A stretch of 64,000 bases of DNA, from positions 15,688 through 79,687 of the forward strand of contig VGZY01000004.1 in assembly GCA_016872355.1 (NCBI GenBank), given 5' to 3'. The DNA comes from SAR202 cluster bacterium (lineage in GTDB: Bacteria > Chloroflexota > Dehalococcoidia > Lucifugimonadales > VGZY01). The first letter of the stretch is position 1. Each line of letters starts with the position of its first letter. The notes under the pieces were generated by a model. That model had not been told where the DNA came from. It searched no databases and saw only the letters and a program-made list of their open reading frames with translations. The translations under genes were made by a program, and so were the position numbers. Below, in pieces: positions 11,103-58,638 of this stretch.

Positions 11103-12461
11103 CTACTCCCCATAAAACCAGGCCGTCTTCAGCACGCGGACCCGGTTGCCGCTGTCGAAGGGGGCGAGCCCCAGCTTCTCCATAAGCGCCTGGTAGGACA
11201 CTCCGAAGCGCTGCGGGTTCTCCGCCTTGTCGCCGAAGGCGCGCACGCCGTAGGTGATAATGGCGGTGTCGCCAACGAAGGTGATCGATGGCTGGTTGCA
11301 CCTGAGCGGCCCCGGAGCGCGGTGTTAGCGCTTGCGGTCCACCGGCTGGGCCGTCTTGCCGATCAGGTCCGCCTCTACCGGCCCAGGTTCGATATACGCA
11401 ACGTCGTCCAGCGACTCCAGGTTGCGGTGGCGTTGCCACGTCTTGCCCTCGTCTTTGCTGACGGCGCAGGTCAGCCGGTGCCGGAAGAGGCCGTTCATCG
11501 TCTCCCACTGCGACGCCTGGTTCCAGATAACGAGGAGGTCGGCATCGGCGAGGTCGCTACCGTTTTCTCTTCTCCCGGCCCCGCGGGAGAGGATGTCGCG
11601 CTCCGGCGACAGGTGAGGGAGGTGAGGGCGCGGGATGCGAGTGACCGTCGCGGGTGAGGGGTAGCAGGCTAGGCCGGTAGGCTCGGGCATCGACCATGTC
11701 TCGCCGAGGTCGTCGGAATAGCACTGGAAGTGGCGGCCCAGGTTCGTTCGGCCGAGCATCATCACCCGCCCGTCAACGAGCTCCACCACAGCCGGCTCCC
11801 CCATCGAATAGCAGCCCAGCGCGCCGGTGTCCAGGACGACGAATGCCTCGTTGTTGCTGCGCTTCCAGGTGGCGCCCTCGTCGTCGGAGTAGTACGCGCT
11901 GGAGTACGCAAGCGCGCAGCGAGAGGCGCCGTCGAACGACTCTCCCAGTCGCTTGATGGCCCTTACGTCGCCCGTCGGCATCGGCCCCATCATGTCGTAG
12001 AAGGGGACAACTATCCGTCCATCCCTCAGGACTATCGAGCTCTCATTGGCGCATACGGCGTCCGCCCCCGGAGGGTTGATGCGCACCGGCGGCGACCACG
12101 TCGCGCCCTCGTCCTTCGAGGAGGTGAATATCAGCCCGGCGTGGTAGTCCGCCTCGTACGCGCCCGTGTGGGCATAGGCCCGCATCACGAGGCCGATGCC
12201 GCCGGACTTGAGCCTGAAGATGTTCGTTTCCATGATGGCCGGCAGCGGCCCGCCGGTCGTCAGCTTGAGGTGCACCGGCGCGGACCACGTCGCGCCACCG
12301 TCCTCGGAGAAGTTCGCCCGCACGGGCTTCACGGGGTCCGCGCTGCCGGAGCCGTACACCCACATGAGCCGGCCGTCGCGCAGCGGCAGCACAGCGCCGT
12401 AGGATGGGCTGAGGTCTACCGTGTCCAGCTTGATCGTCGCATTAACGAGATCCGACGCCAT
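11103..12461 (-). pseudogene. BNR/sialidase-fold paralogue 2, interrupted by one in-frame TAA
   Basis: The frame from MASDLVNATIKLDTVDLSPSYG (ATG 12459-12461) reads to ...QPVDRKR, then TAA at 11325-11327. It then continues in the same frame as HRAPGPLRCNQPSITFVGDTAIITYG...KTAWFYGE to TAG at 11103-11105. Paralogues 1 and 3 have Tyr at the stop position (RKRYHRAPGPL / LKRYHRSPGPL). Confidence 0.85.
11545..11640. repeat. Hairpin repeat module embedded in frame in BNR paralogue 2
   Basis: CTTCTCCCGGCCCCGCGGGAGAGG ... CAGGTGAGGGAGGTGAGGG. It encodes RPHLPHLSPERDILSRGAGRRENGSDLAD at the same site as in paralogue 1. Confidence 0.8.
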
Positions 12462-12480
12462 AGGCCTCCCTCCGGCTGTT

Positions 12481-12528
12481 ACCGACAGCTCACTGTTGCT
12501 CCGAACCCCGATTCCATCGGGGCCTACC
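12481..12528. repeat. Degenerate heptamers + CCCCGAT-TCC-ATCGGGG hairpin
   Basis: Intergenic between BNR paralogues 3 and 2. The hairpin core is shared with the 33089-33174 element. Confidence 0.6.
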
Positions 12529-13803
12529 CTACTCACCGTAGAACCAGCTCGACGACACTACCCGGACTTTGTTCCCCCGGTCGTACGGGGCGAGGCCCAG
12601 CTTCTCCATGAGCGCCTCGTACGATAAGCCGAACCGCTCCGGGATCTCCGCCTTGTCGCCGAAGACGCACATTCCGTAGGTAATGACCGCCTTGTCGCCA
12701 ACGAAGACACACGAGGGCTGGTTGAAGCGCAGCGGGCCGGGAGATCGGTGGTAGCGCTTGAGGTCCGCCGGCTGTTTGAACTTGCCTACGAGGTCGATCT
12801 GGATCGGCCCCGGCTCGATGTAGGACACGTCGTCCATCGATTCCAGGTTGCGGTGGTGCTGCCACGTCTTCCCCTCGTCCTTGCTCACAGCAGTGCTAAG
12901 GCGGTGGCGGTAGAGGCCGTTCATAGTTTCCCACTGTGATATCTGGTTCCAGATGACGACCAGATCGCCGGTGGTCGTGATGCGCTTGATCGTCGCCGGA
13001 GAGGGGTAGCATGCGAGCTGCGTCGGCTCCGGCTGCATCCACGTCTCGCCCGCGTCGTCGGATACGCTCTGGAAGAAGCGGCCAACGTTTGTGCGCGCCA
13101 GCATCAGCACCTTGCCGCCCTTCAGCTCCACCACGGCCGGCTCGCCCATGGAGTAGCTGCCTCCCGCGCCGTGTTCAAGGTTCACGAAGGCCTCATTGTT
13201 GCTCCGCCTCCACGTCGCGCCCTCGTCGTCGGAAAGGAACGCGCTGCAGTAGTAGAGCGTCGCGCGCTCGGGATTGCTGAAGCTCGCGCCGTACCTCTGC
13301 ACCGCCCGCACTTCGCCATACGGCTTCGCGCCGATGCCGATGTAGTACGGCACGATGATGCGGCCGCTGCTGTGGACGATCGACTTCTCGTTCGTAATGA
13401 CGGCGTTCGTTCCGGGCGGGTTGATAGTCACTGGCGGCGACCACGTCGCGCCCTCGTCTTGCGAGGCTGAGAAGATGATGCTCGCCTGGTAGTCGGCCTC
13501 GTATGCTCCGGCCTTCGCGGACCCCCGCAGCACAAGGCCGATGCCGCCGGACTTCAGTCTGAAGAGGTTCGTATCGAGGACGGCAACGAAGGGCTCGCCG
13601 GTCGTGAGTTTGAGGTGCACGGGCGCGGACCACGTCGCGCCTCCATCGCTGGAAAAGTTCGCCCGAACGGGGAGTGCGGGGTTGGCCCTGCCGGAGGTGT
13701 ATATCCACATCAGCCGCCCGTCGTTGAGCGGGATCACCGCCCCATAAGACGGGCTCTGGTCTACCTTGCCCATCTTCACGATGGTGTTTACGTATTCAGG
13801 CAT
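12529..13803 (-). CDS. BNR/sialidase-fold beta-propeller protein, paralogue 3
   Basis: 424 aa from MPEYVNTIVKMGKVDQSPSYG, with Asp-boxes SSDGGATWS, SQDEGATWS, SDDEGATWR, SDDAGETWM, SKDEGKTWQ. Lacks the repeat-derived insert (..IKRITTTGDLVVIWNQ..). Confidence 0.8.
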   Translation of the reverse strand: MPEYVNTIVKMGKVDQSPSYGAVIPLNDGRLMWIYTSGRANPALPVRANFSSDGGATWSAPVHLKLTTGEPFVAVLDTNLFRLKSGGIGLVLRGSAKAGAYEADYQASIIFSASQDEGATWSPPVTINPPGTNAVITNEKSIVHSSGRIIVPYYIGIGAKPYGEVRAVQRYGASFSNPERATLYYCSAFLSDDEGATWRRSNNEAFVNLEHGAGGSYSMGEPAVVELKGGKVLMLARTNVGRFFQSVSDDAGETWMQPEPTQLACYPSPATIKRITTTGDLVVIWNQISQWETMNGLYRHRLSTAVSKDEGKTWQHHRNLESMDDVSYIEPGPIQIDLVGKFKQPADLKRYHRSPGPLRFNQPSCVFVGDKAVITYGMCVFGDKAEIPERFGLSYEALMEKLGLAPYDRGNKVRVVSSSWFYGE

Positions 13804-13882
13804 GGCATGCTCCCGCGAGTTTAGCCGGTGGCGGCTCCGGTGTAGCGGAGCCGTCCGTGGGGAGCATAGTAGAGTCACAGGC

Positions 13883-15004: not shown

Positions 15005-15406
15005 TTAGTTCGGCGTGCCGCCTGGACCCAGGTACTTGTCTGCGGCCGTGCGAAGTTTGTCGTCGAAGGTTACCAGGGGCGCGCCTAGCTTTTTCGAAAG
15101 GTATAGATAAGACGCATCGTAAATTGAGAGCTTCGTCTGAAGGGCTATATCCAGAACTTCAGAATGGTCTACCGGCACCCAATGGATCTTCATTGCCAAA
15201 GCGAAGCTCAGTTGCGATGCAATTGATTGGTATCGGTATATATCGGCCAGAATCTTCTTTTTCGCTACGTTACACAACTCATAGGCAAGCAAATGAGGCT
15301 CGAAAAACTCATCAACCCCCTCAAGTAGGGTCTTGGCTTGGACCGCGGAAGGCTCCTCGAAGGCAATGGCGGCGAAGATAGAGGCGTCCACCACCTTACC
15401 TGGCAT
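15005..15406 (-). CDS. vapC: PIN-domain toxin (VapC family)
   Basis: 133 aa. KVVDASIFAAIAF... and IYDASYLYLSKKLGAPLVTFDDKL motifs. Overlaps the upstream antitoxin by 11 nt. Lower GC than the flanks. Confidence 0.85.
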   Translation of the reverse strand: MPGKVVDASIFAAIAFEEPSAVQAKTLLEGVDEFFEPHLLAYELCNVAKKKILADIYRYQSIASQLSFALAMKIHWVPVDHSEVLDIALQTKLSIYDASYLYLSKKLGAPLVTFDDKLRTAADKYLGPGGTPN

Positions 15407-15629
15407 CCCGGTCCTCTCTTATCCATCGCGTTGATTCGTTGGGCGTTTGTACGCCCAGCGCTTTAGCTCGTTCGCTTAACTCACGGACTGTCACGTATTG
15501 AGGCTTGACCGCGGCTTCAAGGATCGCCAAGAGTTCACCATTGACTGATCGATGGTTCTGTTTAGCTCGTTCGCGAAGCAGCTCGGCAATATCGTCAGGT
15601 ACATTCTTTAAGGTCCAGCTGACTGACAT
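15396..15629 (-). CDS. Arc/FitA-type RHH antitoxin
   Basis: 77 aa. WTLKNVPDDIAELLRERAKQNHRSVNGELLAILE. Confidence 0.75.
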   Translation of the reverse strand: MSVSWTLKNVPDDIAELLRERAKQNHRSVNGELLAILEAAVKPQYVTVRELSERAKALGVQTPNESTRWIREDRDAR

Positions 15630-15693
15630 AGCGGTGCTCCTTGGTTGTATATAGGAACCATTCTACCTTCAAAACAGCACCATTGCAACCTCT

Positions 15694-16944
15694 TTACTCC
15701 ACGAACCGCCGTATCACGAGGCAGGCGTTCTGGCCGCCGAAGCCGAAGCTGTTGGAGAGGACCGTGTCCACCTTCTTCTGCCGCGCGACGTTCGGGACGT
15801 AGTCCAGGTCGCACTCCGGGTCCGGCGTCTCGTAGTTGATCGTCGGGTGTATGGTGCCCGTCTGTATCGTCTTAACGGAAACGACCGCCTCGATCGCGCC
15901 CGCGCCGCCGAGGGCGTGGCCGATCATCGATTTCGTGGAGCTCATTGGCACCTTGTACGCCTGCTCGCCGAACGCCTTCTTCACCGCCAGCGTCTCCGCG
16001 TGGTCGTTCTTCGGTGTGGACGTGCCGTGAGCGTTGATGTAGTCCACGTCCCGCGGGCCGATGCCGGCGTCCTCCAGCGCCCACCGGATAGCGCGCGCCG
16101 CGCCCAGGCCCTCGTCGTCCGGCTGCACCTGGTGGAACGCGTCCGACGAGACGCCCTGCCCAATGACCTCCGCCAGGATATTCGCGCCGCGCTTCACTGC
16201 GTGCTCCAGGCGCTCGAGAACGAGTATGGCCGCCCCCTCCGACGGCACAAAGCCGTCGCGCCCCGCCTCGAACGGCCGGCTCGCCTTCGTGGGGTCGCCC
16301 TCCCGGCGGGACAGCGCCTTGATCACGTTGAAGCCGCCCAGGCCGAGCTGGCTGATGCCCGCCTCGCAGCCGCCCGCCAGGATCAGGTCCGCCGCGCCGC
16401 GCCTTATCGCCTCCGTTGCCTCGCCAACGCCCTGCGTGCCGGCAGCGCAGGCGGTGATGATCGTCGAGGTGTAGCCCTTCAGGCCGAACAGGCGGCTCAC
16501 GTTGGACGCGGCCATGTTCGGGAGGATCATCGTGATGAAGAAAGGGCTCATCCGCATGCCGCCCTTGTCCACCAGCACGCGGGCGTTCTCCTCGGTCGTC
16601 GGGAAGCCGCCGTTGCCGTTGCCCATTACGACTCCCAGGCGCTCGCTGTCCAGCTTGCTGAAGTCCAGGCCCGCGTCCTTCACGGCCATCGCCGCCGCCG
16701 CCACCGAGAGCTGCGAGAAGCGCGCCTGCCGCTTCGCCTCCTTCCCGTCGAAGTAGCTCGCGGGGTCGAAGTTCTTCACCTCTCCCGCAATCTTGCACGG
16801 GAACGGCGATGCGTCGCACAGCGTGATCGGCGCGATGCCGGAGACGCCCTTCACCAGGTTGCCCCAGAACTCATCGACGGTCTGGCCCAGCGGCGTCATC
16901 GCCCCCATGCCGGTGATTACGACGCGCTTCCTGTTTTCTCTCAT
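15694..16944 (-). CDS. fabF: 3-oxoacyl-ACP synthase II
   Basis: 416 aa. Active-site ITACAAG (Cys), NAHGTSTP and GHALGGAG His motifs, C-terminal NSFGFGGQNA. Confidence 0.95.
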   Translation of the reverse strand: MRENRKRVVITGMGAMTPLGQTVDEFWGNLVKGVSGIAPITLCDASPFPCKIAGEVKNFDPASYFDGKEAKRQARFSQLSVAAAAMAVKDAGLDFSKLDSERLGVVMGNGNGGFPTTEENARVLVDKGGMRMSPFFITMILPNMAASNVSRLFGLKGYTSTIITACAAGTQGVGEATEAIRRGAADLILAGGCEAGISQLGLGGFNVIKALSRREGDPTKASRPFEAGRDGFVPSEGAAILVLERLEHAVKRGANILAEVIGQGVSSDAFHQVQPDDEGLGAARAIRWALEDAGIGPRDVDYINAHGTSTPKNDHAETLAVKKAFGEQAYKVPMSSTKSMIGHALGGAGAIEAVVSVKTIQTGTIHPTINYETPDPECDLDYVPNVARQKKVDTVLSNSFGFGGQNACLVIRRFVE

Positions 16945-16977
16945 ATAGACCTCACGAATTCGACCGATATTCCCAAT

Positions 16978-17062
16978 GTAGAGACGCCCCGCTGGGGCGT
17001 CTCATGCGTTGCCGCAACACGTTTGCCCAAACCACCGAGACGACCCGGAGGGTCGTCTCTAC
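16978..17062. repeat. 85-bp nested-palindrome element (two inverted GTAGAGACG-hairpins around a 33-nt core)
   Basis: + strand: GTAGAGACGCCCC-GCT-GGGGCGTCTC (16978-17003). - strand: GTAGAGACGACCC-TCC-GGGTCGTCTC (17062-17037). The right arm overlaps the folC stop codon. Confidence 0.8.
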
Positions 17063-18462
17063 GGGGGGCCCGCCGGCCCCTTCAGCGTCGGGTACAGCTC
17101 CGGCGGTATCCCCTGTATCTCCTCGATCACCTCTGCAACGACCGATAGTGACCCCGTGGCCAGCACCAGGTCGCCCTTCGATGCGGCCGCCATCGCCAGC
17201 CGCACTCCCGCGCCAACATCGCCCGTCTCCCGCGCCACCGGCAGCCCTGCACCGGCCGCCGCCGCGGCGATGCTGTCCGCCGCGCCCGCCTTCGGGTGCC
17301 GCGAGCGCACAGCGTACACCTGCGCGGGCTCAAGCGCCGCCAGCTCAGCCAGCATGCCATCAAGGCTGTGCCCGGAGATAGCGCCGAAGACGACGTGCAC
17401 CTGCCTGTACTTGAACAGGCCCTTCACCGCCCTGACGAGACGGGCGATCGAGTCCGGGTTGTGCGCGCCGTCCACGACTATCTGGACGGGTCCTTTGGAT
17501 AGAATCTGAAGTCGGCCCGGCCAGTTTACTGTCCGCAATCCCTCCAGGATTGCATCCTTGCTGATGGCATAGCCCTTGTCCGCCAGCGTCTCGGCCACCG
17601 CAATCGCCGTCGCGGCGTTCTCCATCTGGTGCTCGCCCAGGAGCGGCGTGCGCACCTGATAAGTCTCGCGAGCGCTCCTCACTTCGAAGTGCTGGCCGCC
17701 CGCGTCCGATCCTCGCGGCGTCCACGACATCCCGCGCGATACGCTCACCAGCGGCGCGCCGCGCCCGGCCGCCACCTCTTCGAACACGGCCATCGCCTCA
17801 TCAACCTGAGGCGCTACGACCGCCGGCGAGCCCGGCTTGATGATCCCGGCCTTCTCCCGAGCGATCTTCGCAAACGTGTCGCCAAGCACCTGCACGTGGT
17901 CCAGGCTTATCCGCGTTATCGCGCTCACCTCCGGCGACACCACGTTAGTCGCGTCCAGCCGTCCGCCGAGCCCGACCTCTATGACCTGGAAGCCGCAGCC
18001 GGCCTGCTTGAAGTGGAGGAACGACATCAGCGTAAGGATCTCAAAAAAGGATACCCCGCCATAGCCTTGCCGGCCCGCCCATTCGATGTCCGGCCATATC
18101 GCAGCGACCAGGTCGGCGAAGTCCTGCTTCGCGATACTATCGTTGCCGATGCGGATGCGCTCGGTGACGCTGTGCAGGTGGGGTGACGTGTACAGCCCCG
18201 TTTTGTACCCGGCCGCGGTCAGGATGGCCGTCACCATCGCCGACGTGCTGCCCTTCCCTTTCGTCCCCGCGACGTGAACGGTTGGAATTCCCTGGTGAGG
18301 GTTGCCGAGCCTCTCCAGGAGCAGACCCATCCTCTCCAGGTGGAACGTCGAATGGCCCGGGCTGTGCTTCGCCCGCTCAAAGTCCGGCAGGCCCATTATC
18401 AGCCTGAGGGCGCCTTCGTAGTCCAGCAGCGGCCCCGCTCCCGGGGTGTCGGCCGGCATCAA
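17059..18462 (-). CDS. folC: Bifunctional folylpolyglutamate synthase / dihydrofolate synthase
   Basis: 467 aa. Mur-ligase P-loop HVAGTKGKGST and the IVVDGAHNPDS motif. Confidence 0.9.
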   Translation of the reverse strand: MMPADTPGAGPLLDYEGALRLIMGLPDFERAKHSPGHSTFHLERMGLLLERLGNPHQGIPTVHVAGTKGKGSTSAMVTAILTAAGYKTGLYTSPHLHSVTERIRIGNDSIAKQDFADLVAAIWPDIEWAGRQGYGGVSFFEILTLMSFLHFKQAGCGFQVIEVGLGGRLDATNVVSPEVSAITRISLDHVQVLGDTFAKIAREKAGIIKPGSPAVVAPQVDEAMAVFEEVAAGRGAPLVSVSRGMSWTPRGSDAGGQHFEVRSARETYQVRTPLLGEHQMENAATAIAVAETLADKGYAISKDAILEGLRTVNWPGRLQILSKGPVQIVVDGAHNPDSIARLVRAVKGLFKYRQVHVVFGAISGHSLDGMLAELAALEPAQVYAVRSRHPKAGAADSIAAAAAGAGLPVARETGDVGAGVRLAMAAASKGDLVLATGSLSVVAEVIEEIQGIPPELYPTLKGPAGPP

Positions 18463-18540
18463 ATCGTCACCGTCCTGTGTGATAGGCAGGCCTCACGCAA
18501 CCGTACCTTGAAAAGACAAAACATTATCGCACAAGCCGCG

Positions 18541-19494
18541 CTAGTGGTCTCGAATGTGCGCCGGCATGAACCCAAGGTTGATCGAGAGGGCGTCTATTAT
18601 GCCTATCTTGCGGAGGTAGTCGATGTTCCCCTGTATGGGCCGGGGCGTGAATCCGAAGGCCTTTTGCACGGAATCGGGCTCCGCGATGCTGTCCAGATGC
18701 AGCATTTTGAGCTGCTCCGGCGTGACCGGCGGGCTGGGCGTCAGCGCCTCCATCACCGCGGCCGCCGGCTTCATCGCGGCGACGGGCACCCTGACCTTCG
18801 CGTACTTTGCGCCCAGCGTGCGGGCTATGACGTCGACAAGCTCGGCGTACGTGTACCGCTCAGGCCCGCCGATATCGTAGGTCTTCCCTTCGTGGCCCTC
18901 CTGCCGGTATGCCTCCACGAGGCACCTCGCCGCGTCATCCACCGCGATAGGCTGGAATTTCGACTGTCCGTCTCCCACGATCGGCACCACCGGCATCAGC
19001 TTCACCAGCGCCGCGAGCACGTTGAAGAACTCATCGCCCTCCCCGAAGCCGACGGAAAATCTGACAATTGTGTAAGGGACGCCGGAGCGCGCTATCTCCT
19101 GCTCCGCCATCCAGCGGGAATACAGGTACGGGATGGAGGCGTCGGACGTCGCCCCGATTGTGCTTGCATAGATGAACCGCTTCACGCCCGCCGCCTTCGC
19201 GGCCGCCAGCAGGTTGCGGGCACCGCCGTAGTTGACAGACTGGAAGCTCAGCTTCCCCTTCTGCCTGATCACCGCCGCCAGGTGGATCACCGCGTCCGCG
19301 CCCACGCACGCTTTGGCAAGCGACTCCGCGTCTAGCACGTCGCCCTGCGCAAGCTCGATGCCCTCCCGGGGCAGCGCCGCCGTCCTGGATGTGGACCGCA
19401 CCAGCGCGCGCGTAGGAATCCCCAGGGCGTGCAGCTGGCCCACAACGCGCCGCCCCACAAAGCCGGTTGGGCCTGTGACGAGAATCATTTGCAC
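18541..19494 (-). CDS. NAD(P)H-binding atypical SDR (NmrA/NDUFA9-like)
   Basis: 317 aa. ILVTGPTGFVGRRVV Rossmann motif; no classical YxxxK assignment attempted. Confidence 0.7.
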   Translation of the reverse strand: MQMILVTGPTGFVGRRVVGQLHALGIPTRALVRSTSRTAALPREGIELAQGDVLDAESLAKACVGADAVIHLAAVIRQKGKLSFQSVNYGGARNLLAAAKAAGVKRFIYASTIGATSDASIPYLYSRWMAEQEIARSGVPYTIVRFSVGFGEGDEFFNVLAALVKLMPVVPIVGDGQSKFQPIAVDDAARCLVEAYRQEGHEGKTYDIGGPERYTYAELVDVIARTLGAKYAKVRVPVAAMKPAAAVMEALTPSPPVTPEQLKMLHLDSIAEPDSVQKAFGFTPRPIQGNIDYLRKIGIIDALSINLGFMPAHIRDH

Positions 19495-19624
19495 CCTCCG
19501 TTGACCCGCCTGCGATTGAGCGTAACAACACGCGAATATGGTGTCAATTCAGCCCGCGGTTGCGCCACGGGAAACCTGGTGCTACCTTATCGCTCAACCG
19601 CGAGTTATCGGAGGCGAGGTCAAA

Positions 19625-20489
19625 ATGCGCAACGTGCTGGCGCTACTTGTGATTCTGGTCTTGCTCACCGGGTGCGAGCCCAAAGACAAGACGCTGGTCC
19701 TCGCCACGACCACGAGCACCGCCGATTCGGGACTGCTGGACGCCATCATTCCGGCGTTTGAGAAGGCGGAGTGCGTCACTGTCCAGGTGCTGGCCGTCGG
19801 CACAGGGGAGGCCATATCCATTGGCGAGCGCGGCGACGCCGATGTCCTTCTGGTCCACGACCGCGCCCGCGAGGACAAGTTCATGGCGGATGGCTTCGGC
19901 TCGGAGCGGCGCGATGTGATGTACAACGACTTTGTGCTGGTGGGCCCGCTGGACGACCCCGCCGGCGTGGCTTCCCTGGCGAGCGCGCCGGAGGCGTTTG
20001 CGCAGCTTACCCGCTCTGCCCGGCCGAGTATCAGGTTCGTTTCCAGGGGAGACCGCTCCGGCACCCACAGCAAGGACGCTGCGCATCTGGGCGGCCGCGG
20101 GCGTCAAGCCTGAGGACCTGCCCGGCAGCCTGTACCAGACAAGCGGCCAGGGCATGGGCGAAACGCTGATCATGGCGGGAGAGATGCAGGCCTACACCCT
20201 CGCGGACCGCGGCACCTTTCTCTCAATGTCCGAGCGCTTGCCCCTGAAGGTCCTCTCCCAGGGCGACCCTTCGCTGCTCAACCCGTACGGCGTCATCACT
20301 GTCAGCAAGGAGCGCCACCCGCACGTGAATGCCGACCTCGCGAAACCGTTCGTTGAATACCTCACCCGCTACGACACCCAGCATGTCATCGGCGGGTTCG
20401 GCGTGGACAGGTTCGGGGAGCCGCTGTTCTTCCCGGACAGCGAGGCATGGAGGGTCCGCAATCCGGCGCCGTCGGGCGCATCGAGATGA
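19625..20489 (+). pseudogene. tupA: TupA-like tungstate/oxyanion ABC substrate-binding lipoprotein, frameshifted
   Basis: From ATG 19625 (GGAGG upstream): MRNVLALLVILVLLTGC lipobox, LATTTSTADSGLLD, ..RFVSRGDRSGTHSKDAA. The frame then breaks near 20081-20087 (gct gcg C atc tgg). The rest (IWAAAGVKPE..QTSGQGMGETL..NPYGVITV..) continues in the +1 frame to 20489. Confidence 0.8.
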
Positions 20490-21148
20490 GCGATATCGAC
20501 GGCGCCGAGCTGGCGCGCATTGTCGCCCTCTCGCTCACGGTGTCCGGCTTCGCGCTCGCCATCAGCAGCCTGATCGGCATCCCCCTGGGCGTATGGCTCG
20601 CCATGCGGCGCTTCTGGGGCAAGCGGCTCATAGTCGCCAGCCTGTACGCCGGTATGGGCTTCCCGCCGGTGGTCATCGGCCTCCTCGTCTACCTCCTCCT
20701 CTCGCGCCAAGGGCCGCTCGGCGGCCTAGGCTGGCTCTACGCTCCTAAAGCGATGGTCGCGGCCCAGGTGATCATCTCCCTCCCCGTCGTTGCCAGCTTT
20801 ACGATGGTCGCCGTCTCTGGGGTCAGCGCCGGGGTACGCAGGCAGGCGCTCACGCTGGGCGCAACCGAGATGCAAGCCGCGCTGGCTGTCCTCCGGGAGG
20901 CCAGGCTGGGGGTGGTTGTGGCGGTCGTCGGCGGCTTCGGCAGCATCATCTCGGAGGTCGGGGCGGTCATGATCGTCGGCGGCAACCTGAAGGGCTCCAC
21001 GCAGGTGCTCACGACGGCCATCGTCCAGTTCACCCGCATGGGCCTGTTCGCCGAGGCGCTCCTGCTGGGCGGAGTCCTTCTCGGGATGGCCTTTCTCATT
21101 AACGTCGCCTGGCTCTTCCTCCAGGGCAGGAGACTGGCGGGCGAATGA
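20486..21148 (+). CDS. tupB: ABC transporter permease (TupB-like)
   Basis: 220 aa from MSDIDGAELARIVALSLTVSG.... Its ATG overlaps the tupA stop (ATGA). Motifs MGFPPVVIGLLVYLLLSRQGPLG. Confidence 0.8.
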   Translation: MSDIDGAELARIVALSLTVSGFALAISSLIGIPLGVWLAMRRFWGKRLIVASLYAGMGFPPVVIGLLVYLLLSRQGPLGGLGWLYAPKAMVAAQVIISLPVVASFTMVAVSGVSAGVRRQALTLGATEMQAALAVLREARLGVVVAVVGGFGSIISEVGAVMIVGGNLKGSTQVLTTAIVQFTRMGLFAEALLLGGVLLGMAFLINVAWLFLQGRRLAGE

Positions 21149-21876
21149 GTGAGCCGGCGTACGTCCTCCAGGGTATTTCAAAACAGTTCCATGGCAGGGA
21201 GGTCTGCCGGGTGCCGGAGCTGGTCGTGCCCTCCGGCTCTCTCACTGTAATCATGGGACACAACGGCGCCGGCAAGAGCACCTTGCTGCGGATGCTGGGC
21301 TTCCTGGAAAGGCCTGACGAAGGGGCGCTGAGCTTCTGCGGCAGCCCGGTGGACTATCGACGAAGCGTGGACATCCATCACCGCCGCGCAGTCACGATGG
21401 TCTTCCAGAGCCCGATCTTCTTCTCCGGGACTGCGCTTTCCAACGTGGAGTACGGGCTGAAGCTGCGCGGGCAGAACGCTGCTTCAGCCGAGGCAATGCG
21501 CGCGCTGGAGGCGGCTGGACTGGCGGGCATGGCTTCCGCCCGCGCCGCAACAATGTCCGCCGGTGAGCAGCAGCGGGTGGCTCTCGCCAGGGCGCTGGCC
21601 ATACTGCCTGCCGTGCTTCTGCTGGACGAGCCCACGGCAAACCTGGACCCGCAAAACACCGCCATGGTCGAGCGCATTGTGGCGCGGCTGAACCGGGAGG
21701 ACGGCACGACGGTGGTGCTGGTCACGCAGAACGTCTTCCAGGCGCGGCGGCTGGCGACTCACGCCGGCGTGATGCTATACGGCGCGCTGGCCGAGTCCGG
21801 GCCGGCCCAGGAGGTGCTGAACGCCCCTCGCGACGGCAGGGTACGGGCGTTCCTCGCCGGCGAGGCGGAGTTCTAG
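21145..21876 (+). CDS. tupC: ABC transporter ATP-binding protein (TupC-like)
   Basis: 243 aa. Walker A GHNGAGKST, signature MSAGEQQRVALARAL, Walker B LLLDEPT. The start overlaps the tupB stop. Confidence 0.9.
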   Translation: MSEPAYVLQGISKQFHGREVCRVPELVVPSGSLTVIMGHNGAGKSTLLRMLGFLERPDEGALSFCGSPVDYRRSVDIHHRRAVTMVFQSPIFFSGTALSNVEYGLKLRGQNAASAEAMRALEAAGLAGMASARAATMSAGEQQRVALARALAILPAVLLLDEPTANLDPQNTAMVERIVARLNREDGTTVVLVTQNVFQARRLATHAGVMLYGALAESGPAQEVLNAPRDGRVRAFLAGEAEF

Positions 21877-21878
21877 CC

Positions 21879-23339: not shown

Positions 23340-23421
23340 GGCGCGCCTCCTGGGGTCCGGATGCGCCTATGATACTACCGGGGTTGCACAGGGGCGAGTG
23401 GTGGATGGAGCGTCCCGGCCG

Positions 23422-24090: not shown

Positions 24091-24481
24091 TTCCGTAAGT
24101 CAACAGCTTGAGCGCCTCGTCGACGGGGAACCAGCGGACATCATCGAACTCGTGGTCGTGCAGGGACACGTCGCCCCCGGTCGGCGACATCAGGTAAAAG
24201 AGCACGGTCTTGTGGCAACGGGCCTTGTCGAAGGGGCGGACGAACCAGTACTCCACCTTATCGATAAAGCATTCCAGGTGGACGTCCAGCCCGGTCTCCT
24301 CCCGGACCTCGCGCACCGCCGTCTGCTCGCGGGTCTCACCCGCATCCGGCGTGCCCTTCGGCAGCGCCCACAGCACCGGCGATTTTCGCCCGCAAAGTAC
24401 TATTTCCCTTTCATTGCCTCCATCTCTGTATACAACTCCACCGGCAGACAAAAGGTGTTCAACGGGTTGGTCTTGGCTCAT
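24044..24481 (-). CDS. NUDIX hydrolase
   Basis: 145 aa. Nudix box [23 protein letters not shown]. Confidence 0.85.
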
Positions 24482-24632: not shown

Positions 24633-24674
24633 TGGCAGTGACAGAAGTCAGAGAACGACCCCCAGGAGGAGACC

Positions 24675-43629: not shown

Positions 43630-43649
43630 GGCTGGTGCTCCTGAAAACG

Positions 43650-45627: not shown

Positions 45628-45701
45628 CGAGATATCTCCTGAATGTTGAACTATTTGTGTTCGATGGCCATTGTATCACGGAGGGGTAAGGGGCTCGCCC
45701 A

Positions 45702-47269: not shown

Positions 47270-47341
47270 CGTTCCCCGGCCGCCCTTAATTCAAGCTATA
47301 GCCCAATTACAGAGCCTTCACGGAAGCGCTCAAATTAATGG

Positions 47342-49060: not shown

Positions 49061-49097
49061 TTGTCGAACTCCTTCGGAATTTTATCCGCTTGACTAT

Positions 49098-49505
49098 CTA
49101 TTTCCTGGACCTGTGTGAGAATACGAGCAGCGTCAGCGACAGGCCGCCGATGCCTGCCAGAGATGCGCCCAATAGAAACATCGCCCACCGCGACCGGGCG
49201 GAGGCCGTCTCGTCCGACGGAGAAACGGTGGAGGAGACAGGGCGGATGCTGCTCTCTGCCTGGTCAGCGGTCGTCTCGAGCGGGGCCAGCGTGATTGTCT
49301 GGCCCTGGATCGTATTCTGCCCTACCGCAGGTTGCGGGCTGTTAGGCGGCGACTGCGCTGCTGCAGAGCCCGTCATGACGGCCGCGAATATCAAAGCCAA
49401 AAAGGGTGCTGCCAGATTTAGCCGGGCTCTAATGCGGCGAACTGATCGAGCACTCGTCTTTTTAAGGAAATGATTCGGCATGCGGGCTTGGGAAATCGTC
49501 ATCAC
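49098..49505 (-). CDS. Small secreted/anchored protein (signal peptide, Pro/Ser/Thr linker, C-terminal TM + basic tail)
   Basis: 135-aa ORF. ..LNLAAPFLALIFAAVMTGSAAAQ.. at the N-terminus and ..WAMFLLGASLAGIGGLSLTLLVFSHRSRK at the C-terminus. The start may be the MPNHF codon at 49481. Confidence 0.5.
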   Translation of the reverse strand: MMTISQARMPNHFLKKTSARSVRRIRARLNLAAPFLALIFAAVMTGSAAAQSPPNSPQPAVGQNTIQGQTITLAPLETTADQAESSIRPVSSTVSPSDETASARSRWAMFLLGASLAGIGGLSLTLLVFSHRSRK

Positions 49506-49591
49506 AACCGAGATTACGAGGTGTTGTTACCGAATTCGTCAATGCCTGTAGGTGCGCCATGCGCGATCTAGTGAGGGCCGGAGCGCCGTAG

Positions 49592-49783
49592 ATGAAGACG
49601 CCATACAAGATACTTGCGGTGGTGCTGGGCGCGGTTGTGATCTATTTCCTGACGCTCAACCTGTGCGACAGCCAGCGTACGATGCGCGCGTCGGCGTGCC
49701 TTGAGATGGGGCTGTGCGACTACGACCCGAATGCGCCCTGCTGGTCCATCTTCAAGCACAATTTCGACCGGGTGGCGGACTGA
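49592..49783 (+). CDS. Small membrane protein with four Cys (hypothetical)
   Basis: 63 aa with GGAG 8 nt upstream. One TM (ILAVVLGAVVIYFLTL), then C..C..C..C. Confidence 0.4.
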   Translation: MKTPYKILAVVLGAVVIYFLTLNLCDSQRTMRASACLEMGLCDYDPNAPCWSIFKHNFDRVAD

Positions 49784-49804
49784 GAAGTGTAGATCCGACC
49801 CGCC

Positions 49805-50272
49805 CTAGCCGAGGAGAACCCACGCGGCGGCAAGGATGATGGCGCCGATGGCGAAGGCCACGGCGAACTGCCTCTTGAGCGGGCTTCCGACGTGGGGAGG
49901 AAACTCCTCGGCGAACGAGAGGACTGCAAGGACGAGGACAATTGCCGGCACGGCGATAAGGAGCAGGACGCCGGCAACTACCCAGGCGCTCTCAGCGCCT
50001 TCCCCGCCGAACAGCAGCATATAGTGCGCCAGCATCGCGAAGAACATCCAGAGGGCGGCCAGGATTGAGGGCCACCCGGCAACGCGCCAAAGAAGGCCGG
50101 CGATAGCGAGCGCCGGGGCCGCAAAGAACAGGCCGGCAATCCACCCTTCCATGCTGCTTTCGCCCTTGAGCATCGGCAGCACGGCATCCCCGAGGATAAA
50201 CATGGCAGAGAAGAGTGCCAGGCCCGCGACCGTGGCGCGACGAGGGGCGGTGAAAACGGCCACGCGTTGCAT
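49805..50272 (-). CDS. Polytopic membrane protein downstream of the sigma factor (anti-sigma candidate, unproven)
   Basis: 155 aa with 4-5 hydrophobic helices, 80 nt downstream of the sigma gene on the same strand. Confidence 0.5.
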   Translation of the reverse strand: MQRVAVFTAPRRATVAGLALFSAMFILGDAVLPMLKGESSMEGWIAGLFFAAPALAIAGLLWRVAGWPSILAALWMFFAMLAHYMLLFGGEGAESAWVVAGVLLLIAVPAIVLVLAVLSFAEEFPPHVGSPLKRQFAVAFAIGAIILAAAWVLLG

Positions 50273-50352
50273 CCGGGCCTCTTTCTTGCGGGAGAAGTGC
50301 AGGCGAGACGGTCCATCGCACTATACTGCCGGAAGGCAGGCGGAGTCCAGCG

Positions 50353-51174
50353 TCACGCGGCAGCGGTGTCCAGGCTATCGGACCGCACCCCCGGGTGCGT
50401 ACTATGCGCCGGCGCATAGCCCAGCTCCGTCAGCCTTGCCCGCAGCATTTCCAGCGCCTTGCGCTGGAGGCGCGAGACGTGCACCTGCGACATGCCCATC
50501 CGCTCGGCGATCTCCGCCTGCGTCAGGCCGCGGTAGAACTTGAGACGGATGATGGTCTGCTCCCGCGGGCCAAGCGACTTGAGGGTGTTGGCGATGTCTA
50601 TGCGGTCGATAATTCCGTCGTGGACGGGATCTTCGACAGACAGAGGGGCTACAGAAGGCAGGTAGCCGGAATTTTCGAGGAGGGAGAGCACGTTTTCAAG
50701 CGGTACCACTGAGCCGGCCCCGTTTAGCTCCATGGCATCGTTTATGGCGTCTGTATCGAGCCCCGTCCACGCGGCCACCTCCGCCGCTGTCGGCAGGCGG
50801 CCGTGGGCCTGTGCGAGGTATTCGATCGCCTGCCCCACCATCTGCCTGTGCCGCTGCACGTCCCTGGGCACCCGAACGGAAAGGCCGTAGTCGCGCAAGT
50901 AGTTCTTTACCAGCCCCAGCACAACGGGCACGGCGAATGCGAGGAACTTCGTCCCGCGCCCCGGCTCGAAGCGGTCTATCGCATGTAGGAGGCCGATGGC
51001 GCCCACCTGAATAAGGTCTTCCATGGGCACGCCGGCGCGGCGGTACCGCTCGCACAGCCGCCGCACCAGCGGCATGTGCTGCAGCAGCAGGCGGTCCCTC
51101 TCCTCCGTGACCTCGGGAGAGGCAACAGGCCTTACCAGATCGATGTCGTCCCAGACTTCCAGCGCCAGCACCAT
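50353..51174 (-). CDS. Group-3 sigma-70 family factor (SigB/SigF/FliA-like)
   Basis: 273 aa. Region 2 (DLIQVGAIGLLHAIDRFEP..FLAFAVP), region 3, and region 4 HTH (LTQAEIAERMGMSQVHVSRLQRKAL). Confidence 0.85.
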   Translation of the reverse strand: MVLALEVWDDIDLVRPVASPEVTEERDRLLLQHMPLVRRLCERYRRAGVPMEDLIQVGAIGLLHAIDRFEPGRGTKFLAFAVPVVLGLVKNYLRDYGLSVRVPRDVQRHRQMVGQAIEYLAQAHGRLPTAAEVAAWTGLDTDAINDAMELNGAGSVVPLENVLSLLENSGYLPSVAPLSVEDPVHDGIIDRIDIANTLKSLGPREQTIIRLKFYRGLTQAEIAERMGMSQVHVSRLQRKALEMLRARLTELGYAPAHSTHPGVRSDSLDTAAA

Positions 51175-51256
51175 ACACTCACCTTGAACGGTCCCCTTAA
51201 TAGTTAAACGCCACGAGAAGCCCGAAACGTTACAAATTTTCCCCGGACACTCTTTG

Positions 51257-51285
51257 TTGACACCCGTTTCTCCCAGGTTTACACT
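51257..51285 (+). promoter_or_regulatory. Near-consensus sigma70 promoter for the Udh-like array
   Basis: TTGACA (51257-51262), 17-nt spacer, TACACT (51280-51285). AGGAG lies 7 nt before ATG 51315. Confidence 0.65.
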
Positions 51286-51314
51286 CGCACCCTAAATACA
51301 TCAGGAGTACCGAA

Positions 51315-52028
51315 ATGCGCGTGCTCGTAACCGGCGCGGCCGGTCGAATCGGCTCAACTGTCATAAATGGCCTCAAGCACAAGTACGAATTCCGCGGTCT
51401 GGACGTCGCTCCCATGCCCAATCTCAAGGACTCCATCGTCGGCAGCTCCAACGACTGGGCGACGGTCGAAAAGGCTATGCCGGGCGTGGATACGGTCATC
51501 CACCTGAGCAACAACGGCCCCGAGTGGGAGCAGGCGAAGCAGTCGATGATCGCTACGTACAACGTGTACGAGCTTGCCGCGCGCAATGGCGTAAAGCACA
51601 TCGCATTCGCCAGCCGCGCCGGCCTCCTCCCTCGCTCCTACTACCCCCGCACCATGACGCGCACCGCCGACCTGCTCCCCAGGCCGGATAGCTACTACTC
51701 GATCACGAAGTCTTTCGGCGAGGCAATGGGCGACATGTACTCCGCGAAGCACGGGATCAGCATCGTCTCCGTTCGCATCGGCAACTTCAGCCTGGAGCGG
51801 GACAAGCCTGCCGACCCTCACCACCTGAGCCATGGCGACTGCGTACGGCTGTGGGACGCCGCGATCAGCTACAACGGCGGCAAGCACGTCCGCGTCTTCG
51901 GCGTGTCCGACAGCAACTGGCCGGTCTATGACCTGGACCACGGCCGCAAGACGATCGGCTACTACCCGCAGGACAAGTCCATCGTGCCGAAGGAGCTCCA
52001 GGTGGACGACCCGCCGAAGAAGAAGTAG
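51315..52028 (+). CDS. Short NAD-dependent epimerase/dehydratase-family enzyme (uronate-dehydrogenase-like), paralogue 1
   Basis: 237 aa. VLVTGAAGRIGS, PDSYYSITK (YxxxK), VSVRIGN. Confidence 0.7.
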   Translation: MRVLVTGAAGRIGSTVINGLKHKYEFRGLDVAPMPNLKDSIVGSSNDWATVEKAMPGVDTVIHLSNNGPEWEQAKQSMIATYNVYELAARNGVKHIAFASRAGLLPRSYYPRTMTRTADLLPRPDSYYSITKSFGEAMGDMYSAKHGISIVSVRIGNFSLERDKPADPHHLSHGDCVRLWDAAISYNGGKHVRVFGVSDSNWPVYDLDHGRKTIGYYPQDKSIVPKELQVDDPPKKK

Positions 52029-52108
52029 GCGGCGCCGGTCGAGCATTCGCCTTCCGGCGGGAGATAGCGTCTCCGGCGCCGGCAGTAGCAAAAACCTGGG
52101 AGATTCCA

Positions 52109-52807
52109 ATGAAAGTCCTGATCACCGGGGCGGCGGGCAATATCGGCACCGCCCTCATAAAAGCGTTCGACAAGAGCAAGTACCAGATCCGCGGCCTGGA
52201 CATCCGGCCCATGCCCCTGCTGACCGACACGATCGTCGGCGACGTCACTGACTTCGCGACCGTGTCGCGCGCGACGAAAGACATGGACGCGGTGATTCAC
52301 CTTACGAACGTGGGCGGCGAATGGCAGCAGGCCCTGCAGTCGATCACCGGCACCTACAACGTCTTCGAGTCCGCGCACCAGAACGGCGTGAAGACAATCG
52401 CGTTCGCCAGCCGAGGCGGCCTGTTCCCCCAGGCCCGCATACCCCGCAAGGTCCAGCGCACGGCAGACCTGCTCTGGTTCCCGGACTCCTACTACACGAT
52501 CACCAAGGTTGTGGGCGAGGGCTTCGGCGATATGTACTCAGCGCGCTACGGGATGAACGTCGTCTCGGTGCGAATAGGCGGCTACGAGCCGTCCGGCAAT
52601 CCGCTGATCGACCCTCACCAGCTCAGCGAGCGAGACTGCGTGGCGGCGTTCGAGGCGGCGATCAACTACAAGGGCGGCAAGCACGAGCGCGTCTTTGGGG
52701 TGTCCGACAGCAACTGGCAGCTCTACGACGTGGAGCACGGCCGGAAGGCAATCGGCTATTACCCGAAGGACAAGTCGGTAGTCCCCGAAGAAAAAATCCA
52801 GCGGTAG
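52109..52807 (+). CDS. Uronate-dehydrogenase-like NAD enzyme, paralogue 2
   Basis: 232 aa. VLITGAAGNIGT, PDSYYTITK, VSVRIGG. Confidence 0.7.
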   Translation: MKVLITGAAGNIGTALIKAFDKSKYQIRGLDIRPMPLLTDTIVGDVTDFATVSRATKDMDAVIHLTNVGGEWQQALQSITGTYNVFESAHQNGVKTIAFASRGGLFPQARIPRKVQRTADLLWFPDSYYTITKVVGEGFGDMYSARYGMNVVSVRIGGYEPSGNPLIDPHQLSERDCVAAFEAAINYKGGKHERVFGVSDSNWQLYDVEHGRKAIGYYPKDKSVVPEEKIQR

Positions 52808-52817
52808 GAAGTTTTCA

Positions 52818-53519
52818 ATGCGAGTTCTCATTGCCGGCGCGGCCGGCACAATCGGCACCGTACTTACAAAAGGGCTGAAGGACCGGCACCACGTCCGCGG
52901 GCTGGACCTGCGGCCCATGCCCCTGCTGGAAGACACCGTAGTCGGCAGCATCACGGACTGGGACACTGTTTCGAAGGCCACGCAGGGGATGGACGCCGTC
53001 ATCCACCTTACGACCCTCGGCTACGAGTTCGAGCAGGCTATGGGGTCGATCACGGGCTCCTACAACGTGTTTGAGTCCGGGCGCCTGAACGGCGTGAAGG
53101 CGATTGCCTTCGCCAGCCGCGCGGGCCTTTTCCCCGGCAGCCGCATACCCAAGACCATCCAGCGCACCGCCGATACGCTCTGGTCGCCGGACTCCTTCTA
53201 CACTATCTCGAAGGTTGTGGGAGAGGGCTTCGGCGACATGTACGCCTCGCGCTACGGCATCAGCGTGGACTCCGTCCGCATCGGCGGCATCGACCCCGTG
53301 GAGCCGGAGACGCCCAACCATCCGCATCGCCTGACGCACGGCGATTGCGTCCGCGTCTTTGAGGCGGCGATCAACCACCGCAAGGGTACACACGAGCGAT
53401 CCTTCGGCGTGTCGGACGGCGGGAACTGGCAGCTTTACGACATGGAGCATGGGCGGAAGGCCATCGGGTACCATCCTCAGTCTGTGGCGGTTGTCCCGCC
53501 GGACAAGATCGGGAAGTAG
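52818..53519 (+). CDS. Uronate-dehydrogenase-like NAD enzyme, paralogue 3
   Basis: 233 aa. VLIAGAAGTIGT, PDSFYTISK, DSVRIGG. Confidence 0.7.
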   Translation: MRVLIAGAAGTIGTVLTKGLKDRHHVRGLDLRPMPLLEDTVVGSITDWDTVSKATQGMDAVIHLTTLGYEFEQAMGSITGSYNVFESGRLNGVKAIAFASRAGLFPGSRIPKTIQRTADTLWSPDSFYTISKVVGEGFGDMYASRYGISVDSVRIGGIDPVEPETPNHPHRLTHGDCVRVFEAAINHRKGTHERSFGVSDGGNWQLYDMEHGRKAIGYHPQSVAVVPPDKIGK

Positions 53520-57185: not shown

Positions 57186-57476
57186 ATGATGGTCCAGTAC
57201 ATCGATCACACCGGCTCCGTTATTGTCCTCACCAACGAGGCGACGGCCCACATCTTGACCAGGCATCGAGAGATGGCCGGGGAGATGCATAAGATCGCAT
57301 CGGTGCTGCTGGAGCCTGATAGAGTCCTGCCCGACAGCCGGTTTGCGGGCACCTACAGGTATTACCGGGCGTTTGACAGCATGGCGATGGGCCGGAAGTT
57401 CATCTGCGTGGTAGTGAAGAAGCTGCCGAACGAAGCGTTCGTGAAGACGGCGTTTCTTACTGGCAGGATCAGGTAG
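57186..57476 (+). CDS. Small conserved-looking protein, candidate toxin of a two-gene module (family not firmly recognised)
   Basis: 96 aa. ..VLTNEATAHILTRHREM... and ..FICVVVKKLPNEAFVKTAFLT.. Lies 9 nt upstream of a DUF2283-like gene. Confidence 0.5.
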   Translation: MMVQYIDHTGSVIVLTNEATAHILTRHREMAGEMHKIASVLLEPDRVLPDSRFAGTYRYYRAFDSMAMGRKFICVVVKKLPNEAFVKTAFLTGRIR

Positions 57477-57485
57477 AGGTGGCAA

Positions 57486-57956
57486 TTGGACAAGAAGATC
57501 AGCCTGTGGTACGACCCGGATGTGGACATACTTGAGGTCCTTTGGGATGAAGCCCCAGGTACTTTTGAGCCCATCGAGTCCGATGAGCGCATCCTCGAAC
57601 GAATTGACGAAAACGGTGAAGCCCTCGGTTTCATGATCCAGGAATTCAGTACGCTCAAGGCGGAATCCTGGATCGACTTTCATGTCGGGGGGCGTCCTCG
57701 ACCCGGCCTGGAGAACATGACCGTTGAAATGGCCGCCCGGGAGATCGGTGTTTCGGGCAGTCGCATGCGCCAGTTGCTGGCCGCCGGGAGAATTCAGGGC
57801 GCCCGAAAGCTCGGACGTGATTGGATAGTGCCGACGCCCGTGCGGATGGTCCCAGGCGAGCGTGGGCCGATCGGTGTTGCAGGCTCAAGGCCGGCGAAGT
57901 CCGCCCGTTCGTCAAAAAAGCCCTCTCCCGCCCCATCTGCAACATCGCAAATCTAA
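57486..57956 (+). CDS. DUF2283-like domain fused to a helix-turn-helix domain (candidate antitoxin/regulator)
   Basis: 156 aa. N-terminus ISLWYDPDVDILEVLWDE...DENGEALGFMIQEFS (DUF2283 pattern). C-terminus MTVEMAAREIGVSGSRMRQLLAAGRIQGARKLGRDWIVP (excisionase/MerR-type HTH). Confidence 0.6.
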   Translation: MDKKISLWYDPDVDILEVLWDEAPGTFEPIESDERILERIDENGEALGFMIQEFSTLKAESWIDFHVGGRPRPGLENMTVEMAAREIGVSGSRMRQLLAAGRIQGARKLGRDWIVPTPVRMVPGERGPIGVAGSRPAKSARSSKKPSPAPSATSQI

Positions 57957-58082
57957 AACGCTTCCGCACCATAGGGGCGGCCCAGTGTGGCCGCCCTTAA
58001 CCTTTCTGCGAAGATTGACGCCCGGAGCGTATTATCGGCCAATATGGTATACTTCCTGCCCCGCACACCAGGAAGGAGTACC

Positions 58083-58638
58083 ATGAATCGCATCGTCGTC
58101 CTGGGCTCGACCGGCTCCGGCAAGACCACAATGGCGAAGCAGCTTTCACAGCGGCTCGGCATCCCGCACATCGAGCTCGACGCCTTTCGCTGGGACCCGA
58201 ACTGGACAGAGACGACCAACGAGGTCTTCCGCCCCCGCGTCGCCGAGGCGGTGAAGGCCGACGCGTGGATCATGGACGGCAACTACGGGTTCGCGCGCGA
58301 CCTTAGCTGGCCGATCGCGGATACGGCAGTGTGGCTGGACTACTCCTTCCCCCTGGTATTTATGCGACTCACTCGCCGCATCTTCAGGCGCAGCATCTTC
58401 CGCGAGAAGCTGTGGAACGGAAACGTGGAGAGCGGCTGGAAGCACTTCGTGACGAAGGACTCGCTTTACCTGTGGCTCGTCCGCAGCCACTGGCGCAGGC
58501 GCCGTCAATTGGCCCAGCTCATGGTTGATCCCCGCTACGCCCACATCCACTTTAACCCGCCTCAAGTCTGCCCGCCAGGCGCGCAAGTGGCTGTCTTCCG
58601 TTTCACCCCAGCCCGGCCCCCGGCCTACTCCACCGTGA
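58083..58638 (+). pseudogene. P-loop kinase (adenylate-kinase/FlaR-like), frameshifted near its 3' end
   Basis: ATG 58083 (GGAAGGAG upstream): MNRIVVLGSTGSGKTTMAKQLSQRLGIPHIELD.... After ..DPRYAHIHF (TTTAACCC, 58551-58558) the expected tail TRLKSARQARKWLSSV...* is in the +1 frame, ending at TGA 58636-58638. The track's 449-aa ORF is an artefact of the shift. Confidence 0.7.

Follow-up and report, generated by a model that had tools for sequence, protein, structure and literature searches.

The question raised by this locus is whether genes that read as broken in a metagenome-assembled genome (MAG) are broken in the population itself and, if so, by what process. The window, by which we mean the whole 64,000-nt (64-kb) stretch analysed, belongs to contig VGZY01000004.1 of a SAR202 bacterium from Lake Tanganyika, an Illumina/metaSPAdes MAG whose proteins from this region are held at NCBI as MBM3933018-68 ("MAG: SAR202 cluster bacterium", locus tags FJ319_...). 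A sequence-only reading had flagged nine lesions within 48 kb of it, four in-frame stops, four frameshifts and one lost start codon, and all nine are in the sequence at or near the positions given for them. We conclude that the lesions are very probably genuine, recent loss-of-function mutations, that is, young pseudogenes and segregating null alleles in a free-living Lake Tanganyika SAR202. The affected genes are sugar-acid/sialic-acid-type catabolic paralogues, putA, tupA, a surface protein and a small kinase:

11103-12461, minus strand: BNR/exo-alpha-sialidase-like paralogue, second of three, in-frame TAA at 11325-11327
19625-20489, plus strand: tupA (tungstate ABC substrate-binding protein), one extra base within 20075-20078
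21879-23339, minus strand: GH-like (distantly GH32-like) hypothetical gene, in-frame TAA at 22524-22526
29321-33056, plus strand: putA, in three frames, shift 1 at the G5 run 29515-29519, shift 2 between 32248 and 32372
39268-39969, minus strand: type II HAD (2-haloacid dehalogenase-like) gene, in-frame TAG at 39862-39864
42769-43626, minus strand: xylose-isomerase-like TIM-barrel paralogue, one of four, sole possible start an ATT at 43624-43626
43650-44645, minus strand: DapA/NanA-like lyase (DHDPS family), in-frame TAG at 44016-44018
45702-47269, minus strand: surface protein, frameshift at the C6 run 45898-45903
58083-58638, plus strand: P-loop kinase ("DNA topology modulation protein"-like), one extra base at 58551-58558

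Alignments and hidden Markov model (HMM) coverage across each site demonstrated that every lesion interrupts full-length homology. The four stops are all present as claimed. In the BNR paralogue the TAA lies 74 codons short of the normal end (...VDRKR(stop)HRAPGP...), in a column occupied by Tyr (TAC) in both other paralogues of the window. The GH-like gene reads ...DRFTQF(stop)GMPMVRYE..., this column being Tyr (FYGMP) in 10 of 12 homologues, and its closest intact homologue is a protein of 486 amino acids (aa) that is 82–84% identical. The DapA-like lyase reads ...GAMVD(stop)AKMGL..., where Phe is found in 17 of 18 homologues and Tyr in the remaining one, with TTC in the intact paralogue in the window. 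In the HAD gene (...PPTRQFL(stop)AKKAAV...) the TAG stands 3' of the catalytic Asp motif DxxGT, and joining the two halves gives a protein spanning the Hydrolase HMM (positions 2–191 of 191). An alignment to PDB sequences placed this last stop in a variable region, and only the use of closer homologues made the column informative; in the closest of these (78–84% identical, the 84% homologue having a gene context that is not syntenic with the window) the column is Gln, and elsewhere Q, E, R, K or S. The simplest path to this stop is therefore a classic CAG>TAG transition, not a change in an aromatic codon. The claim that the four UAR stops sit at aromatic positions thus holds for three genes (Tyr, Tyr and Phe/Tyr in the BNR, GH-like and DapA-like genes) and fails for the HAD gene.

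The frameshifts described in tupA, putA, the surface protein and the P-loop kinase were each borne out. In tupA the frame changes between ...THSK and LRIW..., where four bases (GACG, 20075–20078) occupy the place of one expected codon, so that the extra base had been recognised correctly but placed near 20084, 6–9 nt away. Repaired TupA matches the equivalog TupA NF041772 over positions 2–263 of 266, and PBP_like_2 over 5–264 of 267. The surface protein is Ser/Thr/Pro-rich and carries an InlB-type B-repeat and, at its C-terminus, a hydrophobic anchor; a G7 run on the coding strand restores its frame, lengthening the match to Flg_new_2 (InlB B-repeat) from 15–46 to 15–71 of 73 positions, and this one-G repair also regains the anchor. 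The kinase site is TTTAACCC (58551–58558), from which removal of one base yields a 184-aa protein, whose tail after repair, RLKSARQARKWL, can be aligned with the RLxSPRxxxxWL consensus shared by 14 homologues (171–190 aa). After repair, the N-terminus of putA matches PutA_N over its full extent (1–113 of 113), and a tblastn search with a 1224-aa Chloroflexi PutA recovered three successive frames, covering residues 7–66, 69–976 and 994–1224.

The TIM-barrel gene has, as had been noticed, no ATG, GTG or TTG upstream of its conserved N-terminus (LRRLGL), there being none from the upstream stop to 43530. Its ATT follows an AGGAG by 8 nt and coincides with the start position of the paralogues. As the three other paralogues begin with ATG or GTG, this codon is more simply read as a weakened start than as regulatory AUU initiation.

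Whether such lesions exist outside a single consensus sequence was assessed in public assemblies. The Lake Tanganyika study (Tran et al. 2021, PMC8245535) comprises 24 metagenomes of Illumina HiSeq 2500 2x150 reads, which were assembled one sample at a time by metaSPAdes 3.12. One of the 24, JGI metagenome 3300020193, contains contigs near-identical to the window. Sample A was the Logan assembly of SRR7990526, and sample B consisted of JGI 3300020193 together with the Logan assembly of SRR7053297, which we infer to be the same sample from their nearly coinciding contig ends. Sample A is 100% identical to the window over 5527–11613, 16983–23795, 26703–30244 and 33098–51959. Sample B covers 7622–11439, 16502–21288, 21313–24832, 24856–29640, 29496–39123, 39127–40628, 46890–49520 and 57250–61252.

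The second assembler (Logan, sample A) gave eight of the ten lesions base-identical: the BNR TAA, the tupA shift, the GH-like TAA, the putA G5 run, the HAD TAG, the ATT start, the DapA-like TAG (with the same 209 + 119 aa split) and the C6 shift of the surface protein. The second sample (B) reproduced seven of the ten, with no change at the BNR TAA (identical in its Logan contig too), the tupA split, the GH-like TAA (whose 271 + 211 aa split is thereby present in three assemblies from two samples), the HAD TAG, the kinase shift or the second putA shift. Over ~34.5 kb, samples A and B differ at two places only, one single-nucleotide polymorphism (SNP) and one indel, the latter in the putA G-run. 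Because they recur in a second assembler and in a second sample, the lesions are real at most sites, and not sequencing or assembly errors. The SNP, G/T at 35892 in fabG, gives TGC (Cys) in the window and GGC (Gly) in the other sample (context IPQ[C/G]HFGE), at a position that is Gly or Ala in solved FabG structures; at both inter-sample differences (this SNP and the putA G5) the window carries the less conservative allele.

An artefact, with consensus errors arising from error-prone reads or a chimeric mixture of strains, had been among the explanations proposed, where it was ranked with recent pseudogenisation as most likely. It would account for the putA G-run differing between contigs (G5 vs. 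G6) and for the sample B assembly breaking exactly there, and strains can be mixed in MAG consensus sequences. However, Illumina HiSeq is not a homopolymer-prone platform, the agreement between assemblers and samples is base-exact, and the G6 putA allele restores the frame exactly, as a real allele should. Four stops produced by random error would, by our estimate, imply ~100 substitution errors, whereas ~34.5 kb shows one SNP. We consider an artefact very improbable; the data refute it for most sites, and the heterogeneity that it supposes is real only at the putA G-run. An exact look-up of the ten in-silico repaired proteins among 15 billion proteins found none of them, so no intact allele has been assembled anywhere, except for the partial G6 putA contig. 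Scans of the GTDB representative genomes with the Vgb-lyase-like protein and PutA returned no relative above 52% identity (the best PutA match), which precluded a comparison with sister genomes, and JGI metagenome contigs scanned with FabF gave distant relatives only (at most 68% identity) and no near-identical contigs.

The putA gene records the process most directly. Within sample B its G-run is polymorphic, with the broken G5 allele in contig Ga0194131_10028177 (covering 24856–29640) and the intact G6 allele in contig Ga0194131_10012910 (29496–39123). The two contigs overlap by 145 nt (29496–29640) around the run, which has the look of an unresolved assembly bubble at a real polymorphism; such a break of a metaSPAdes assembly, with the contigs overlapping exactly around the run, can serve to find real indel polymorphisms among public assemblies. 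Further downstream, putA possesses a second frame switch (32248–32372), the fifth frameshift of the window and one more than had been counted. It leaves the C-terminal aldehyde dehydrogenase (ALDH)-like domain (231 residues, 32373–33056) detached and without a start codon of its own. The earlier statement that the affected reading frames are otherwise intact does not hold for putA. The linker at 32248–32372 exceeds that of a 52%-identical relative by ~74 nt and contains a perfect palindrome with an 11-bp stem, CCCCCTTCCCT-CTC-AGGGAAGGGGG, followed by CCAGGGGGTTAGG; the hairpin lies at ~32307–32331, its motif is unique in the window, and the fold has −60.6 kcal/mol (z = −3.15). The hairpin is a candidate for a small palindromic repeat element, and its insertion may have produced the second putA shift. 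With a C-terminal lesion shared between samples and an N-terminal lesion still polymorphic, putA shows the expected progression of decay.

The coexistence of G5 and G6 in sample B, and the position of the second tract inside a surface-anchored protein, would also suit phase variation, in which the putA and surface-protein G-tracts were contingency loci that switch expression. Classic contingency tracts are longer, typically 7–8 nt or more, and lie in surface or host-interaction genes. The tracts here are only 5–7 nt (5–6 nt as observed, 6–7 nt when intact), and the window has 91 G/C runs of at least five, so two hits need no special mechanism. Moreover, putA is a metabolic gene with a second, fixed lesion, and the surface protein was found with one tract length only. 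Thus tract-length polymorphism was seen for putA alone and a long hypermutable tract for neither gene, which makes phase variation unlikely; the two G-run frameshifts may behave as simple slippage polymorphisms.

Gene decay, by which we mean the recent inactivation proposed at the outset, is dense and selective here. Of ~55 gene-like sequences in the window (~47 of them within the flagged 48 kb), 8–9 are disrupted (~17%, about one in six). Against the upper end of a prokaryote pseudogene background of 1–5% (Liu et al. 2004, PMC522871), this gives a binomial P of 0.006–0.0015 for a 5% expectation. The lesions are located in accessory, often paralogous, catabolic genes, three of them in paralogue arrays (BNR x3, TIM x4 and DHDPS x2), and the housekeeping genes of the window are intact. 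Searches of ~45 other open reading frames (ORFs) against Pfam found detected domains covered essentially end to end, with 12 ORFs giving no hit; carA, pyrB, pyrC, pyrR, fabF, a folC-like ligase, fabG, ileS and a sigma-70 factor all exhibited full domain coverage, and plsX is intact as judged from its translation and a precomputed hit. No insertion sequence (IS) elements or transposases occur among the Pfam hits of the window.

The disrupted genes also look fresh. Unique changes at otherwise invariant columns number 10 of 100 in the DapA-like lyase, vs. 11 of 101 in its intact paralogue, 2 of 73 in the GH-like gene and 0 of 88 in the HAD gene, and the disrupted BNR gene has the fewest such changes among the three paralogues. 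The window is 63% G+C, and real genes can be distinguished by a third-position G+C content (GC3) above 0.75, which remains high in both halves of the lesion genes. With no excess of unique changes over intact sequences of equal divergence and high GC3 on either side of the break, we take most lesions to be young, although as a sequence pattern the lack of excess changes would fit continued constraint equally well as very young lesions. Recent pseudogenisation, as one of the proposed explanations had it, is supported: the lesions are real, they fall in accessory or paralogous catabolic genes, and other signs of decay are missing.

The identity of the stop codons had been presented as a special pattern, UAR at aromatic positions with no TGA. 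We compared it with an opportunity model built on the codon usage of the window itself (15,375 codons), in which, of the single-step changes that create a stop, Tyr codons supply 13–22% and TGA is the product in only 15–21%. The probability of no TGA among four stops is 0.39–0.55 and that of at least two Tyr among four is 0.09–0.22. For at least three Tyr it falls to 0.008–0.037, a value valid only if the DapA-like codon was Tyr, and the third Tyr is doubtful. The pattern does not go beyond chance.

A related proposal invoked a transversion-biased mutator, in which 8-oxoguanine (8-oxoG), through a mutM/mutY defect, would lie behind TAC>TAA and ATG>ATT. C>A is found in two of the four stops, the sole inter-sample SNP is G/T with T in the window (Gly>Cys, fabG), and a change of ATG to ATT by G>T is conceivable. 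Yet G:C>T:A changes make up 26–44% of one-step nonsense mutations at this codon usage, so two of four, in what is a small sample, is what would be expected. The HAD stop is a C>T transition, the DapA-like stop requires C>G or a two-step change, and indels account for half of the lesions; ATT need not have descended from ATG, and the window is without repair genes. The 8-oxoG signature therefore finds no support beyond expectation, and a mutator of this kind is improbable.

Read-through fares worse. The terminators of 44 intact genes are TAG in 26, TGA in 10 and TAA in 8, so that TAG and TAA together end 34 of 44, and TAG-G is the commonest genuine terminator context as well as the context of both in-frame TAGs. 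Neither codon is avoided as a genuine terminator, the in-frame stops do not stand for one amino acid (Tyr, Tyr, Phe/Tyr and Gln), and none occurs in the housekeeping genes of the window. A tRNA scan of the 64 kb found no tRNA gene, and an Rfam scan of the same window found no family. With UAG and UAA as the main terminators, the TAG-G context, no tRNA in the window and no codon signal, stop reassignment, pyrrolysine and systematic read-through are very unlikely; pyrrolysine at TAG was rejected outright, most of the intact genes ending in TAG. In bacteria this codon is usually a minority stop, and its majority use in a 63% G+C genome is unusual in itself. Programmed ribosomal frameshifting was rejected as well: the TupA, PutA, kinase and B-repeat homologues are encoded in a single frame, the tupA and kinase sites are not slippery, and the existence of an intact G6 putA allele counts against it.

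There is a softer version, in which the lesions are leaky, with near-cognate tRNA-Tyr reading UAR, slippage rescuing the G-runs and the genes remaining partly functional. Two, perhaps three, of the stops replace Tyr, the lesion genes have no further decay, and by the sequence both genes with a G-run would regain their exact wild-type protein through a −1 slip on GGG. The tolerated Tyr read-through that had been suggested is nevertheless unsupported, given the terminator usage and context, the lack of tRNA genes in the window and the Gln replaced in the HAD gene. To these are added a Tyr enrichment that is not significant, the tupA and kinase shifts at sites neither slippery nor homopolymeric, and the two lesions in putA. 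We find leaky lesions hardly credible, and it is scarcely more probable that null alleles persist at high frequency by leaking, with tRNA-Tyr decoding UAA/UAG and slippage correcting the G-runs. Were it so, a free-living bacterium would be keeping partly working "broken" genes as a low-expression state.

The gene decay described here is ordinary, though unusually dense, and requires no new mechanism or genetic code. Ordinary point mutations would have supplied the stops (TAC>TAA twice, CAG>TAG once and one Phe/Tyr codon to TAG), alongside two 1-nt G-run losses, two 1-nt gains, the frame change in the putA linker and the weak ATT start. Functional redundancy or disuse may have relaxed selection on the affected genes. 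The population, near-clonal by its two differences over ~34.5 kb, could have let null alleles reach high frequency, by drift or hitch-hiking, more quickly than deletion removed them. Truncated, inactive proteins are the most likely outcome for the disrupted genes; the stops would remove catalytic or structural parts, as in the HAD gene, whose stop is 3' of the nucleophile Asp, and in the DapA-like lyase, which would end 117 residues early. For the G-run frameshifts, reversion or partial bypass by slippage is possible.

Several points weigh against this interpretation. Large planktonic populations are expected to purge null alleles, and a disrupted fraction of ~17%, a figure for this window only, is well above the 1–5% usual in free-living bacteria. 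The ATT start, the DapA-like TAG and the surface-protein shift were confirmed in one sample only, albeit by two assemblers. Furthermore, it is contig boundaries that indicate SRR7990526 to be the source sample of the window and samples A and B to be independent.

The window shows that genes which appear split in an assembly of short reads can be genuine alleles of the population instead of assembly noise, and public assemblies alone suffice to demonstrate this. It flags a freshwater SAR202 population of very low diversity in which fresh null alleles are, locally, unusually numerous. Were the whole genome to carry such a load, this would be one of the few cases where gene loss has been observed in progress in a free-living planktonic bacterium, and a caution on inferring the metabolism of this MAG from gene presence. 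A reading less exotic than leakage, though also improbable, is that genes are being inactivated in a burst across the entire lineage, owing either to a mutator state or to a collapsed effective population size in an ancient lake.

Other features of the window are of separate interest, among them a remnant of a different kind:

26147-26614, plus strand: LVIVD-repeat beta-propeller C-terminal fragment, one LVIVD repeat hit in a 155-aa ORF

This ORF is wedged between two opposite-strand genes, holds only the C-terminal end of a gene and looks like an older truncated remnant. Two further candidates were rejected: the in-frame TAA at 34222–34224 is merely the MaoC/PlsX gene boundary, and three tandem epimerase-like ORFs of 232–237 aa (51315–53519) are equal-length paralogues rather than one frameshifted gene. 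An ORF at 36359–37576 (minus strand) of low GC3 (0.62) matches DNA damage-inducible protein D (NF008573, 330 bits, HMM 11–277 of 288). At 405 aa it runs ~125 aa beyond the end of the family, antisense into a GNAT gene, and is not called by the gene callers of public assemblies; it is a candidate foreign gene whose stop codon has been lost. Toxin-antitoxin modules occur at 229–657, 8197–9335 and 15005–15662, with three PIN-domain toxins and RHH/MazE-like antitoxins, and a MazF-like ORF at 8197–8535 with a TTG start is likewise uncalled by public gene callers. Tandem arrays comprise the three BNR/sialidase-like genes (9646–13878), four xylose-isomerase-like TIM barrels (40014–43626), two DHDPS-family lyases (43650–45627) and the three epimerase-like genes, which together with a DUF4185 protein at 62143–63579 suggest an expanded sugar-acid catabolic island.

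Set beside known systems, the locus resembles stop reassignment or read-through (UAR as Tyr in the Mesodinium nuclear code, UAG as pyrrolysine) in that UAA/UAG interrupts the frame of two or three genes where Tyr is conserved. It differs in that UAG and UAA are here the main terminators, one position is Gln, only accessory genes are hit and no suppressor tRNA was seen in the window. As in the contingency loci of Neisseria, Haemophilus and Campylobacter, a 1-nt change in a G/C run switches the frame, with one tract polymorphic within a sample and one in a surface protein, but the tracts are short (5–7 nt), one target is a catabolic enzyme and there is no evidence of recurrent switching. The TIM-barrel ATT recalls the AUU initiation of infC and pcnB in E. 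coli in standing well spaced behind a strong Shine-Dalgarno sequence at the start position of its paralogues, though with no evidence of regulatory use.

A further comparison is with the early genome degradation of recently host-restricted bacteria (Mycobacterium leprae, Sodalis, Shigella and Salmonella Typhi), in which many otherwise intact genes likewise carry one or two point lesions and housekeeping genes are spared; here, however, there is no sign of host association, and high GC and strong codon bias are kept. Against the young unitary pseudogenes surveyed by Liu et al. (2004, PMC522871), the local share of ~17% is several-fold above 1–5% and the host is an uncultured planktonic SAR202 known from metagenomes only. 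With these pseudogenes the window shares full-length homology to intact genes broken by a single premature stop or frameshift, accessory genes and expanded families as the targets, and few disablements per gene, denoting a recent origin.

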